A model generated the notes under the pieces. The model saw nothing but the letters and a program-made list of their open reading frames with translations, did no database searches and was not told the origin of the DNA. The position numbers were made by a program, and so were the translations under genes. Source: Octopus sinensis (Eukaryota). From it: a DNA stretch of 64,000 bases. The DNA lies in assembly GCF_006345805.1 (NCBI RefSeq), contig NC_043013.1, forward strand, positions 51,708,001 through 51,772,000. The letters are read 5' to 3'. Shown here one piece after another: positions 4,461 to 53,398 of the stretch (positions are counted from its first letter, which is position 1; each line of letters begins with the position of its first letter).

Positions 4461-6935
4461 ACACACTTTTTTCCCCTTTGCCCTTTAAATTTAGTGTGTA
4501 TCACCATTACATCAAAGCAATTCTGTACAGTGGAAACACTACTCTGCCCACTCCCTTTTTACTATTCCAGTACTCACTGCCTCCCACTCCCTCTCTCTTG
4601 CTCTCTTTCCTACTCTCCTCAGTCCCTCCCCCTCTCTCTCTCTGTCTCTCTCTCATTATATATAACAATACAAGATCAATCATATTGGCTAGAAGCAGAA
4701 TTTTTACAATTCATATTAGAAAAATTCTTCACCAGACAAGCCCCATAAAAAAGTGGAGAACTTCGTCAAAATTGTACCTAATCTCATTAATTGAACTTGT
4801 GACTGAATCTTCATTAATTTAGTCTCTAACTGAATCATTGACCCACAACAAATCTAATGTTTTGGACCAGAAAAAAAAAATAAATAAGAAAATAAAAGCA
4901 AAATTAATATGGAATTTGTCTTTATTCCATTTAAGAAATTGTTGTTGTTGTTGTTGTTGTGGCGTCTTTTATTTTTCCTTGTTTTCCATTTTTGATATTT
5001 GTAATATTACATCAAAACAAATGAAAAGTATTTCAATTATAATGATGATAGTGATAATGATAATAACAATAATGATGATGATGATAATAGTAATGGTGGT
5101 GATGATGTGATTAGGATGATGGTAGTGTGCAGAAAAGTGATGTATACCATAATTATTGTCATTGGCACCCCCACTGTCATCACCATTGTCTCTACTATCA
5201 TCATCATTATTTCCTCCATCAACATCACCATCATCACCTTCATGGTCATCACCACCATTATCATCATGATCACCCTTTCTCATCATTATTGTCAGCATCA
5301 TCATCATTATCGTATTCACAATCATTGTGTAAACTGACCAATGAATATTTCATGTTGATAGTCTGTATTCAAAGATTACATTGGGTTAACTGGAAATAAA
5401 TTTAAATGATGCTTTAATCAACATTTATATTCTTTTGGAAATTTGGAAAGATCCTTAGACACCAGGTTATCAAAATATATATGGGCTTTGAAAAACAGTA
5501 TTGTTTAATGGCTAATAAGGTTGTTTGAAATATATTACAATTTACCAAACTTTATAAATAAGGTAATTATGGTGGTGAATATACTGTTTTATAAAGACTC
5601 TATCTTTAACATACATAGAAAACCATTTCTGGCAATGGGAAATATTACCTTGCTTGGAAACCGGTGAGGGCTGGTGACATGAAGAGAATCCAGCCATAGA
5701 AAGATAGATTAGAAGGCTCCAAAGATCCTGGTGTCAGATTTTAGTAAGTTTCAAGCTTGTATACAGCTTATATAGGTGGCAAAAGATGGATAGTATACAA
5801 AGAAAAAAATTTATTTACCATTGTAAGTTACAAGTACTAATGTGTCAAGTGTACATGCAGTTCCATGTCAGTGTATCTATCCGAGATTCTGGAGTTACTG
5901 TGGTTCTTCAGATGATAAAAATAGAAGTTCTGAGAATGAGTTTTGATTCTCCCATTTGCCAAACAAGGCTTGTTATATGCATGTGTGTTTGTGTGAGTGT
6001 AAGATATAGAAGGAGACAGAAACAGGAAAAGTGGTAACATTGGCTTAAGTATTTGAAAACTGTCTACTGTGAACTATAGAGCTGTGCTAACCACTATGCT
6101 AAAGCAGTGTCACTTATATATAAATATATGTATATGTGTGTGTATGTATAATACACACACACTTACACACACAGATCAAATTATAGATTTATGCAAAATT
6201 TATTCAGTATTGTTTTTAACATCTCTTTCATGTCAAGATGATAGATTTTTTAAAATTAATCTTTTTCACACTATTTGTCAGTCTCTGCCTGTCCGTCTGT
6301 CTGTCTATCTCTCTATCTATCTCTTTATATATCTATCTATTTATCTATCTGTCTGTCTATCTATGTATGTATCTATCTATCTTCCTATCTATCTATATAT
6401 CCATCTATCTCTCTATCTATTATTCCACCTCTCTCTCTCTCCTTTTCTCTTTGTATGTATGTATGTGTGTGTGCCTATAGGTATCTCTGTCTAAATCTCT
6501 CTGGCTAATATATAAACACACATGCACACTTATATATTTCTGTGTCTTATCTATGTATGTTTGTGTGTGAAAAACAAGATATATCTACACACACACACAC
6601 ACTCACACACACATACACACACGCCAATTCTTGTCTCTCTCTTTTCCATATATTTCTCCCTCCATCTCTTGCTCCTTCTCTTTGATGTTTTCCCCTACCA
6701 TTTCTCACCTGTTTCTCTCTCTTTATCTCCCCCTCTCCACACCATCCTACTATCTCATCTCAATCTATTACATCACTATATACACTCACCTTTTAAACCG
6801 GAACTAATATCAAAGAGAATGGAATTAAAAGAGCAGAGATGAAACACTTATTGAAAATATATATGTATATATCTGTCTGTCTATCTATGTATCTCTCTCT
6901 ATCTCTCTATATATATAGATATATATAGATATAGT

Positions 6936-6975
<40 letters not shown>

Positions 6976-7116
6976 TATGTATATATATAATATTACATTA
7001 TAGTGTGTTCATCTATGTATGTATAATATATATATCTATATATATATACACACACATACACATATATGTAGATATATATTTGTATATAATGTTATGTGCA
7101 CAGATATACAAGTGTG

Positions 7117-7151
<35 letters not shown>

Positions 7152-7959
7152 TATATATATATATATAATATAATATAATATATATGTGTATGTATGTATA
7201 AATGTGTGTGTGTGTGTACAATTTCCTATAAGTGTTTGTATGTTTATACTTATATGTATTTATATAATTAATATAATGATATATATGAAATCTATAATTG
7301 CTCTTTTCAGAAACTTAGAATTGCATTTAATTATATCATTACTACTCCCTCCATCCATACCCTACACACACACACACATCTTTCTGTCTTTCTTTTCTCT
7401 CTCATTCTCTCTCACTCATTCAGTATATCTCTTCCTTTTCCTCCTCTCACTCTCTCTTTCACATTCCAACTCTCTTGTTGAAACTTTCTCTCTCTCTCTC
7501 TCTCTCTCTCTGTTATTTTCTCTCTCTTTCTGTTATTTTCTTTTTCTCTATTCTTACTCTCTCTCTCTTAGTTTCTCACTATCCTCTCTTATTTTCTCTC
7601 TCTCTCTCTCTGTTATTTTCGTTTTGTCCTTACTCTCTCTCTCTTTTTTCTCTTATTTTTTTTCTCACTATTCTCTCTCTCTCTCTCTCTCTCACTTTGT
7701 GTCAGTATTTCTCTCTCTCCTATGCTAATTTCCCATCTTCACTCTCTTCTTTCTGGTAATGTATCTTGTAGTATAGATGGTGGTGGAGGTGATGGTGTTC
7801 CTGGTGGTGGTGGTGGGTGGAGGGGTTGGAGGTGATACCCCAATAAGTGCTAATGATATTTCTGAGTAGGTGGTGATGTTGCTCGGGATGGTGGTGGTGG
7901 TGATGGCACTGGCAATGGTAGTGATGATGATGGTAGTGATAAGTAGCAGTGAGTTTGGT

Positions 7960-8275
7960 TTTGACGATGCTGCAGATGATGATGATGATGGCAGTAGCAT
8001 AAATGTTGCTCTGTACTGTTATGATGATGATGGTGGTGGTGGTGGTGTTGCCAGTAAAAGTGATGATGGTGCTGGTAAAAGTGGTGGTGATGATGGTGAT
8101 AGTGGTGATGCCGGTAAAAGTGATGACGACGATGATGGTGGTGGTGGTGCTGGTAAAAGCAGTGGTGATGATGATGATGATGGTGGTGATGGTGTTGCTA
8201 GTAAAAGTGGTGATGTTGGTAGTGCTGGTGGTGCTGGTAAAAGTAGTGCTGATGATGATGATGGTGGTGGTAGTT
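7960..8275. repeat. Degenerate minisatellite built from (GGT/GAT)n with a recurring gtaaaag motif
   Basis: gtaaaag(t/c) recurs six times between GAT/GGT runs. Confidence 0.75.
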
Positions 8276-50400: not shown

Positions 50401-51071
50401 GTCTGTCTGTCCGTTTGTCCGGCTATCTTTTTATACTTTTATCTCTCTGTATATGTATCTATTTGTCAATGTATTTATCATTTCTCTCTCTCTCTCTCTC
50501 TCAGGACACCCTCATCTACTGTACCCCACTCTTGCCCACAAAACCACACATTGTGTACCTACTATACCCCACTACAATCACTTTAACAGCACCCACCCAC
50601 TGCCACCCATTTTCTCACCTACCCTTAGTACACCCCATACCTAGTGCACTGCCACCCTCATTCACTGTGCCCACCCATAAGCACTTTTACACTCACATCA
50701 CCCCTACTTTAACTCACCCCAACCCCGCTAATGTATCAACACCAACCCATCTTTTACCACAATTCTGGTACCCCACCCACACCAAAGTAAATCACCCCCA
50801 CAACCAGTGTTCCACCTCTCAGATATTTAACATTTTACCTGATGAGTAATCTGAAGACGGTGCTTAAGAAATTACACCCCCAGATAATGTTTTTGGTAAA
50901 GGGGGTACCTGTTGACACCTTACAAGTGGTACCCACACCCTTTTTTTTTCCTCTTCATATCAACCATGTTTGATACCCATGCTCACTTACCCCACTACTA
51001 CTACTAATACTACTGCTGCATAAACATATATTTATATCTTTGGCAGCTGAGAATCATCTGTTACAGGTACT

Positions 51072-51127: not shown

Positions 51128-51423
51128 AATAGCGATAACAGCCAAGCCGCTGTGGAGACTGGGCTGATCAAAAACACACAATTCATGCAGTAGCAGCATG
51201 ATAAATTGATAGTATATTGTCAACTTAAATTGAGTGTCCCATAAAAGAGAAGAATGCTACTGTTATTTAACCCTAGGATATACCATTTCCTGTTGGACTT
51301 GACACATTTCCTGAGAAATTTAGAAATATATTATTTCTATTTTCAAAACTCAGAGACTGTATTTCACTTCAGATATATGCTTTCAAAGGTGGATAGGCAT
51401 CGACAGCCAGCAAGCCATGCTAC

Positions 51424-51466
51424 TCCAGACTGATGATGAGCAATGACTCTGAAACTAGTCTCTGGG
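51424..51466 (+). ncRNA. Type I hammerhead ribozyme motif, copy 1
   Basis: tccaga-CTGATGA-tgag-caatga-ctct-GAAAC-ta-GT-C-tctggg. GUC triplet with predicted cleavage after 51460; palindromic ACTAGT helix III. Confidence 0.75.
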
Positions 51467-51772
51467 TGCTAGCTCTGCTAGGTGGAGGTGCTTATAGCTC
51501 CTTTGAAAACATAAGGACACAGGAAATGTGTCAAGTCCAACAGGAAATGGTGTTTCCTTGGGCTAAATAACAGTAGCATTCTTCCCTTTCATGGGACTGT
51601 CACATTAAGTTGACAACATACCATCACTTTATCGTGCTGCTACTGCATAAATCTCTCTGAGAGATTTAGAAATATATTATTTCTATTTTCAAAAATCAGT
51701 GAATGTATTTCACTTGAATTATTATATGTTTACAAAGGTGGGTAGGCATTGACAGCCAGCAAGCCATGCTAC

Positions 51773-51815
51773 TCCAGACTGATGAGGAGCAAATACTCTG
51801 AAACTAGCCTCTGGA
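51773..51815 (+). ncRNA. Type I hammerhead ribozyme motif, copy 2 (U16.1 to C variant)
   Basis: tccaga-CTGATGA-ggag-caaata-ctct-GAAAC-ta-GC-C-tctgga. Stem I extends as ccagca/tgctgg. Confidence 0.7.
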
Positions 51816-53398
51816 TGCTGGGTGGAGGTGCTTGTCTTCACTTTGAAAACATAAGGACACAGGAAATGTATCCAGTCCAACAGGAAACGGTGTTTCCTAG
51901 GGCTAAATAACAGTAGCATTCTTCCCTTTTATGGGACTGTCACATTAAGTTGACAACATGCTATTACATCATAGTTTCCTGGGTGTTGCAAATATTGCAC
52001 ACTATAAAATCGTTGCCAGAGCGGCTGACTGGCTTCTGTGCCTGACTGGCCCCCATGCCAATGGCACGTAAAAAGCACCCACTACACTCTCGGAGTGGTT
52101 GGCATTAGGAAGGGCATCCAGCTGTAGAAACTCTGCTAGATCGAGATTCGAGCCTGGTGCAGCATCTGGTTTGCCAGCCCTCAGTCAAAATCGTCCAACC
52201 CATGCTAGCATGGAAAGCAGACATTAAACGATGATGATGATAGACATAGCAGATAATATGTAAAATCACATTAGATATGAATATATATATTATGTGTGTG
52301 TGTGTGTGTGTGTGTGAAGGCACATGGCTCAGTGGTTAGAGTGTTGAGCTTACGATTGCCAGGTTGTGAGTTCGATTCCCAGACCAGGCTGCGTGTTGTG
52401 TTCTTGAGTAAGACACTTTATTCCACGTTGCTCCAATTCACTCAGCTGTGGAAATGAGTTGTGACATCACTGGTGCCAAACTGTAATGGCCTTTTTTTTG
52501 TCTTTCCCTTGGGTAACATCGGTGGCATGGAGAGGGGAAGCCGATATGCATGAGCGACTGCTGGTCTTCCATAAAAACAACCTTAGGTTGTGCGTCCACT
52601 GGTGAGGCAACTTCCTGCCCTGGCTTGACCCCCGGAGGGGAACCTCTTAAGTGCACCCATGGTCATTCGTGACCAATGGAATTGAGTCATATATATGTGT
52701 ATGTATGTGTATGGATCTATACGAGAATATATGTATATATGTATGCATATATCTAAATATACACATATAGTATGTATGTGTGTGTGTATATGTATGTATG
52801 TATATATATATATATGTATGTACGTGTGTGTTTGTATATGTGTATAGATATATATATGTATGTGTGCACATATGTATGGATTAGGAGTAGGAGGGGGAAA
52901 GAATCGTTTAGAGTCACTTAGAGAGAGGGAGTGGTAGGGGTGGGTAAAAACTTCACGCCCCCTACCTTTAATTTGGTCTCCCCTTTTGTGTTCAGGTGAC
53001 TACCATTAGTTTGTTACATCAATAGACCAACTTCTTCCCCCCCACCACCACCATTTAACTATGTCAGCTGTTGTTGTTGTTATTGTTTATGGTGGTGGTT
53101 TGTGGAGTTTACTTTGATGTTCTGATGATCGTTACATTGTGTATGTGTGTGTGTGTGTGTGTGTGTGTTTGTGAGAATGAGTAATATTGAAAGCTTTGTT
53201 TAGTGCGTTTCTCTATGTGTGAGTCAGTGTAGTGTGTGTGTGTGTTCTATGGGGGGGGGGCATGTCTGCTCAACCCCCAAAAAGCATAATTTATTCACGC
53301 GTGTCATTTTTGTATGTCAATTTGTTTATATATTATATATATATGTACATGTGTGTGTGTATGAGTATGCATATATATAAATTTATGTTATGTATGTA

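Follow-up and report, generated by a model that had tools for sequence, protein, structure and literature searches.

Hammerhead retrozyme families of an octopus genome with Penelope-type insertion ends and a putative LINE landing site beside the ribozyme

The 64,000-nucleotide stretch of octopus DNA analysed here, hereafter the window, contains a small non-coding unit repeated in tandem with a hammerhead ribozyme motif in each copy, raising the question of what kind of element this is and by which route it was copied. The initial annotation had placed two tandem hammerheads here, and the sequence and the alignment agreed on cores at 51430 and 51779 and cleavage positions at 51460 and 51809, 349 nt apart. 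The ACUAGU palindrome reported for copy 1 was seen again, as was GCC in place of GUC in copy 2, which is the damaged copy. Unit positions were numbered q1-346 from 51311, which places the core start at q120 and the cut after q150. The two units showed 90% column identity in the alignment (Table 1). The description of the locus as a tandem repeat was correct for the dimer starting at 51311, but an inverted 133-nt copy of the 3' part of the unit (51181-51313) had been overlooked, and the family occurs mostly as dispersed copies of 1-1.5 units. Likewise, the 11-nt bulge noted in copy 2 is present, but it is the product of a private 9-nt deletion, and helix I of other copies is longer and built of two parts. 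Judged from the identity of unit 1, unit 2 and the arm to the family majority (94, 90 and 89%), the window locus is an old, decayed insertion of a retrozyme family designated A, and it is unlikely to matter to the animal. Part of the stretch was also present in DNA data under six species labels. The repeats at 52040-52220 and 52320-52680 resemble what we take to be common octopus SINE-type elements, the former lying closely 3' of the end of unit 2.

Table 1. Features of the retrozyme locus in the window.
Feature	Position	Strand	Remarks
Inverted 5'-truncated arm	51181..51313	-	Unit positions 210-342; head-to-head with the tandem; 89% to family majority
Unit 1 (family A), complete at 346 nt	51311..51656	+	94% to family majority
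Unit 2	51657..51975 (end approximate)	+	Terminates at the short end class; 90% to family majority
9-nt deletion in unit 2	3' of ribozyme	+	Alignment of both units
Empty LINE target site 1	51405..51417	+	Junction point of LINE 3' ends in other copies, where 12-13 nt are duplicated
Empty LINE target site 2	51754..51766	+	Exact-pattern search
Hammerhead 1, type I	51424..51466	+	Core 51430-51436; predicted cut after 51460
Hammerhead 1, details	U·U 51437/51450; GAAA 51451-51454; helix III palindromic	+	
Hammerhead 2, type I, damaged	51773..51815	+	U16.1 to C at 51808; G·U at helix II base
Site of the family's short 3' end class	51624..51634	+	Unit position ~316-324
Palindrome spanning the unit junction	51649..51667	+	Within the ~55-nt tail separating both end classes
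Site of the family's tail 3' end class	51678..51694	+	Junction + ~23-37 nt

The type I core (CUGANGA, GAAA and UH) was found in copy 1 and in the family, and was broken in copy 2 by the change of U16.1 to C. The U·U pair at the base of helix II in copy 1, previously regarded as a lesion, turned out to be the family state, as U occupied position 10.1 in 31 and position 11.1 in 33 of 34 aligned copies (28 loci, chosen with unit 2 as query). CpG decay as the cause of a lost G-C pair in helix II was thus ruled out, U·U being the majority. The 31-nt core of copy 1 had 115 exact matches in the genome when compared to none for the reversed control, indicating that the hammerhead motif did not arise by chance and, again, that U·U is the family state. 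The 12 core positions were changed in 9 of 408 cells versus 405 of 7777 elsewhere (p=0.005 over 28 loci, a value that is indicative only because the copies are related). The sister families B, C and D retained the core with different paired helices. Helix sequences differed among families A-D yet remained paired, as read by eye because MAFFT had misaligned the four families towards the 3' side. Folding of copy 1 gave a hammerhead-shaped long stem (z -3.6, none of 200 shuffles as good). The window monomer folded as a linear molecule gave z -5.0, and the family majority folded as a circle gave z -9.1 (60 shuffles), with z -8.2 for family D. An Rfam scan had been proposed to recognise the motif, and the Hammerhead_1 model (RF00163) gave no match on the window copies; a family D copy scored 32.2 bits (E 1.3e-6), below the gathering score of 34. 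The other Rfam matches in the window, to miRNAs (driven by microsatellites) and, weakly, to snoRNAs, were dismissed. Outside the units, at 50828-50850, a single CUGAUGA with GAAG after it bears a loose resemblance to a hammerhead.

The initial annotation had also proposed a genome search with the unit and a consensus. The search of the 2.72 Gb genome returned 2724 candidates, of which 40 were scored at 86-91% identity, revealing a dispersed multi-copy family with a conserved core. The locus was properly recognised as a partly decayed member of a type I hammerhead, retrozyme-like family. The unit is 346-349 nt long, non-coding and 40% GC. The arrangement of the window, with two direct hammerheads one unit apart, did not recur in the 70 further loci mapped. 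Families A, B and D were partly homologous (69-80%). Family D was younger, with a 352-nt unit, 91-99% identity and arrays of up to seven units. All cores of the seven-unit family D array (L240) carried the same change in CUGA, which suggests local DNA-level expansion of a dead unit. In another locus (L062, 2928-5465), a 1.27-kb tandem duplication (97%) contained the family A hammerhead twice.

Metazoan non-LTR retrozymes, as described in the accessible part of PMC7229834, include mussel elements of 350-390 nt and the axolotl Rtz_353 with the ribozyme HHR_Amex2, which has a U·U at the base of helix II and cleaves weakly as a monomer and better as a dimer. Family A agrees with them in its non-coding unit of approximately 350 nt below 50% GC, type I hammerhead, strong self-pairing and HHR_Amex2-type U·U, and its features fall within what is described for metazoan retrozymes: a low-GC, non-coding unit of 150-450 nt that is repeated in tandem, carries a type I hammerhead and folds into a highly self-paired circle. 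In contrast to these elements, copies of family A mostly lie dispersed and have inverted arms, staggered ends and a LINE target site, and their helix III consists of 1 bp plus the palindrome instead of 2 bp. In the accessible main text of PMC7229834, the words octopus and cephalopod are absent.

Such a weak ribozyme, with U·U and a 1-bp helix III plus palindrome, would act as a dimer to free unit-length RNA. At the window locus, core 2 could cut site 1, and site 2 with GCC should resist cutting, so that the locus should release no monomer. Under the double-hammerhead model (PMC4209133, accessible part), with strands assigned by us, it should cut at most once. Two consecutive complete hammerheads, by which a 2026 preprint defines an active locus, are not present in the window, as copy 2 carries GCC. 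According to the accessible part of PMC11167929, cleavage is unnecessary for insertion of a Penelope-like element (PLE) in vitro, and the ribozyme may therefore be a weak passenger. In the accessible part of the preprint (bioRxiv 10.64898/2026.07.22.740005), eight of nine predicted Xenopus dimers failed to cleave.

RNA reads on the units numbered 556-711 per run, per 11.5-12.9 million, in three runs under a related species label (approximately 6% of each). They occurred in both orientations, and 85-87% continued into unlike sequence. No pile of read ends was seen at either cut site in these few reads from three runs, whose libraries are unsuited to cleavage mapping; one pile of six molecules at 51405 in one of the three runs was too small to use. 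The reads showed low-level transcription of dispersed copies and nothing firm on circles. Over 51311-51964, A>G was the commonest difference in runs X21-X23, at 44-46 places versus 25-30 for G>A, reflecting either RNA editing of paired RNA or plain divergence of copies.

The route of copying was approached through the ends of 70 family A loci, made up of the 30 leading exact matches plus 40 taken from those that followed in the list, loci already covered being skipped. The 3' ends of the main arm fell into a short class at about q321 (32 loci) and a tail class at the unit junction plus about 30 nt (23 loci), with 15 others. The two classes lie approximately 55 nt apart, one per arm. All 29 pairs in which both arms were classed combined opposite classes (short/tail 19, tail/short 10, same class 0), and the remaining loci were 12 pairs with an unclassed arm and 29 loci without an inverted arm. 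None of the main-arm ends at the 70 loci lay within 5 nt of the cleavage site. Two end classes, 46-48 nt apart by eye, were also found in family D. The copies were 5'-truncated, often head-to-head and continuous across the cleavage site. In the window, the outer end of the inverted arm belonged to neither class and stopped short of the usual tail.

PLEs form partial tandems with an inverted truncated copy and a tail on one side (PMC8557442, accessible part), and the Anolis PLE begins reverse transcription at two internal sites bounding the tail, with uncleaved RNA as template (PMC11167929, accessible part). The paired staggered ends of the retrozymes match this structure, from which we infer mobilisation by PLEs; the link to Penelope-like elements drawn in the initial annotation thereby gained support from the insertion structure. 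Like PLEs of EN+ clades and PAc of Anolis, the retrozyme copies combine partial tandems, an inverted 5'-truncated copy, a one-sided tail and ends off the ribozyme cut. Unlike PLEs, the family units have no RT/GIY-YIG frame, the hammerhead is canonical rather than minimal, and the stagger of 46-55 nt exceeds the published PLE tail of 30-40 nt. The template would be an uncleaved RNA, either tandem or circular, on which a Penelope-like RT/endonuclease would prime at two internal positions and copy round for 0.5-2 units. The element is, on the structure of its insertions, probably a non-autonomous retrozyme copied by Penelope machinery.

No frame combining RT and GIY-YIG was found in the window between 44000 and 58000, and all coding inserts traced beside units were of L1/Tx1 type. 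One young PLE family is abundant in the genome (L098, L197-L226), with RT and GIY-YIG in frames of up to 796 aa and a cysteine linker that we presume to be Neptune-like, and it also forms head-to-head pairs. In the 30 loci of this family that were examined, the 3' region had no homology to the units, stray unit matches fell outside it, and an autonomous PLE homologous to units A-D was not found. The 3' region contained a minimal-hammerhead-like motif, and copies often ended in TA runs. The locus L098, where a LINE ORF1 lies beside a PLE frame, was considered as a partner and rejected, as the PLE there has its own 3' region. At 5096-8105 of this locus, the LINE ORF1 passes straight into the truncated PLE frame, and the ORF1 match occurred at three places with identical scores.

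The units also bear on LINE insertion, through a target site that the initial annotation had not noted. In families A-D, which differ in sequence, LINE 3' ends joined the unit 25-26 nt 5' of the ribozyme core. This junction is the 5' base of the extended helix I, so the ribozyme domain is left whole. Among the 70 family A loci, 11 had a LINE-type end at q95 (nine by script and two by eye), a share slightly inflated by the skipping of full-length loci, and two of the 11 had no match to the cassette described below. Copies beginning at q95 had common upstream DNA, namely a cassette of approximately 1.7 kb with a CCHC-knuckle ORF1 and a terminal poly(A) signal, bordered on both sides by the same 12-13 nt. 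Target duplications of 12-20 nt were seen at L061, L063 and L231, the last being a full two-ORF LINE within a family D dimer with a 20-nt duplication. Exact patterns detected ten filled and 58 native junctions at family A sites genome-wide. In most true junctions of families A-D, the poly(A) signal lay 36-38 nt 5' of the core, though the targets differ. The automatic junction scan gave 67 rows, about a third of which were chance matches removed by eye. Cassettes were also stacked in tandem at the target site, and the ORF2 and ORF1-only forms used the same site with different 3' ends.

The preference for this target was considerable. Of 21 exact 3' ends of the ORF1-only form, 14 entered a hammerhead unit (four in A, five in B and five in C, several decayed), and the other seven met the 5' end of another LINE after the same motif, the target motif being present in all 21. 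For the ORF2 form, 13 of the best 30 matches ended at a hammerhead, one of them at the query's own locus; of the other 17, one ended elsewhere in an A-like unit, and the remaining 16 met other LINEs, a further repeat or unassigned DNA. Both fractions, accompanied by target duplications, exceed the share of more than 20% of flanks that PMC4494074 (accessible part) uses for target specificity. The inserted LINEs contained the domains zf-CCHC, RVT_1 and zf-RVT, with homologues carrying PF03372, PF00078 and PF13966 and CCHC proteins as atlas neighbours. An ORF1 with a CCHC knuckle and an ORF2 with an APE endonuclease, RT and a zinc-binding end constitute Tx1-type anatomy, and we presume on this anatomy that the LINE is Tx1 rather than L1. 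Intact ORF2s of 1131 aa were present and linked to hammerhead units, and the closest named protein match of a LINE from the genome was from Argonauta hians, in keeping with the probable octopod host. In the ORF2 tree, subfamilies sorted with A, B/C and D, with some young subfamilies on other targets. One young subfamily (L132, L136 and L145 on contig C28) ended at one other repeated target. At L149 and L239, LINE 3' ends were joined to A-like units at another point, which lies 3' of the ribozyme, and a read in RNA run X22 had a loose end of the same junction type at 51817.

The LINE would thus use the retrozyme as a specific landing site while sparing the ribozyme. The composite L160 carried LINE 3' DNA plus unit on both arms, arranged head-to-head with short and tail ends, and in the composites L178 and L076 the inverted arm abutted a truncated cassette. 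These end structures suggest that empty units and composites shared one copying route; a LINE-retrozyme composite could then be recopied by the Penelope route.

Several other readings of these structures were weighed. The units might be no independent small elements but remnants of an autonomous Penelope-like element, namely its 3' ends (pseudo-LTRs), left over when 5' truncation removed the body. The end structure shared with PLEs, the location of hammerheads in pLTRs (PMC4209133), the closeness of Xenopus retrozymes to pLTRs (bioRxiv 10.64898/2026.07.22.740005) and the partial sampling of the family would all fit this. However, the DNA 5' of the unit in the 70 loci consisted of further unit sequence, a LINE 3' end, flanking DNA or an inverted arm, the traced coding inserts pointed to LINEs, and the unit end was joined to its own start in many copies as well as in the seven-unit family D array, which makes such an origin unlikely. 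Mobilisation by the LINE ORF2 protein instead of a PLE, with the inverted arms as twin-priming products, would account for the intact ORF2s tied to units and for the missing PLE partner. Twin priming places the inversion breakpoint beside the start of the main arm, and the end of the window arm adjoins the start of unit 1 on the circular map. Against it, the arm has its outer end fixed in either of two classes, irrespective of the start, and the ends have no A tail; we regard it as highly improbable. It is hardly credible that the 133-nt arms at 51181-51313 and 51520-51652 are the terminal inverted repeats of a MITE or another DNA transposon in which the hammerhead is incidental: these two arms are 89% complementary, but among copies the arms range in length from tens to hundreds of bases and are lacking in many, the outer ends are staggered rather than forming fixed symmetric terminal inverted repeats, and the core is retained in four families.

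The LINE junctions might also descend from a single ancient LINE-retrozyme fusion that diverged into families A-D, the empty units being deletion products, with no targeting at all. The partial homology of A, B and D, the copying of composites as units and the sorting of ORF2 subfamilies agree with such a fusion. The ORF1-only cassettes, in contrast, were not sorted by flanking family (16 changes versus 17.4 when shuffled), which favours repeated insertion, and the starred branches force at least eight changes for A, three for B and two for C (row L120 being mislabelled A). The own duplicated motif on both sides in each family, the tandem stacking of cassettes and the use of one site by two forms with different 3' ends also oppose a single fusion, and we consider it quite unlikely. 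Taken together, a joint explanation appears likely to us, in which the window holds an old family A retrozyme insertion made by PLE-type copying, with a ribozyme acting as a dimer and a landing site for LINEs, and in which composites are recopied by the Penelope route.

The preprint reached the same overall conclusion, that retrozymes are non-autonomous PLE derivatives. Its basis differs: according to its accessible part, it draws on pLTR homology and joint occurrence in genomes that are mostly those of vertebrates, whereas the octopus families rest on insertion structure, no homologous PLE having been found. As for the LINE, target-specific Tx1 elements in the accessible part of PMC4494074 nest in DNA transposons, LTR elements and RNA genes, such as Tx1L in Tx1D (piggyBac), Tx1-Mar in Mariner-N4 and Keno in U2 snRNA, and no PLE or retrozyme is among the targets named there. 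The octopus LINE resembles them as an L1/Tx1-type element nested at a set place in another repeat. It differs in landing in a retroelement unit that carries a ribozyme, in keeping its offset from the core over four target sequences, and in that the composite would be recopied by a second mechanism. In the listed titles and openly accessible main-text passages searched, no description was found of a LINE with a hammerhead target that is carried by the route of its host element, and the accessible main text of a 2026 octopus repeat annotation contains neither the word ribozyme nor the word target. Two things stand out from the sequence comparison, namely the PLE-type ends of the copies and LINEs of one lineage that insert at a constant distance from the ribozyme and travel along with it.

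The paired staggered ends provide structural evidence for Penelope-type internal priming of animal retrozymes and point to two candidate start sites. As for the choice of the LINE site, a common local motif in A, B and C could account for it without any role of the ribozyme. More speculatively, and in our view rather doubtfully, the ribozyme itself might set the site: the downstream hammerhead would cut read-through LINE RNA approximately 56 nt past the LINE end, and the target-matching 3' flank would guide insertion, or the endonuclease would measure from the conserved core. If true, this would be a nested system of a PLE motor, a retrozyme, a LINE and its ORF1-only derivative, in which the host element would supply the LINE with RNA ends and with a second route of copying. 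The fixed-offset landing of LINEs in four unit families offers a natural test of APE-type site choice under sequence drift.
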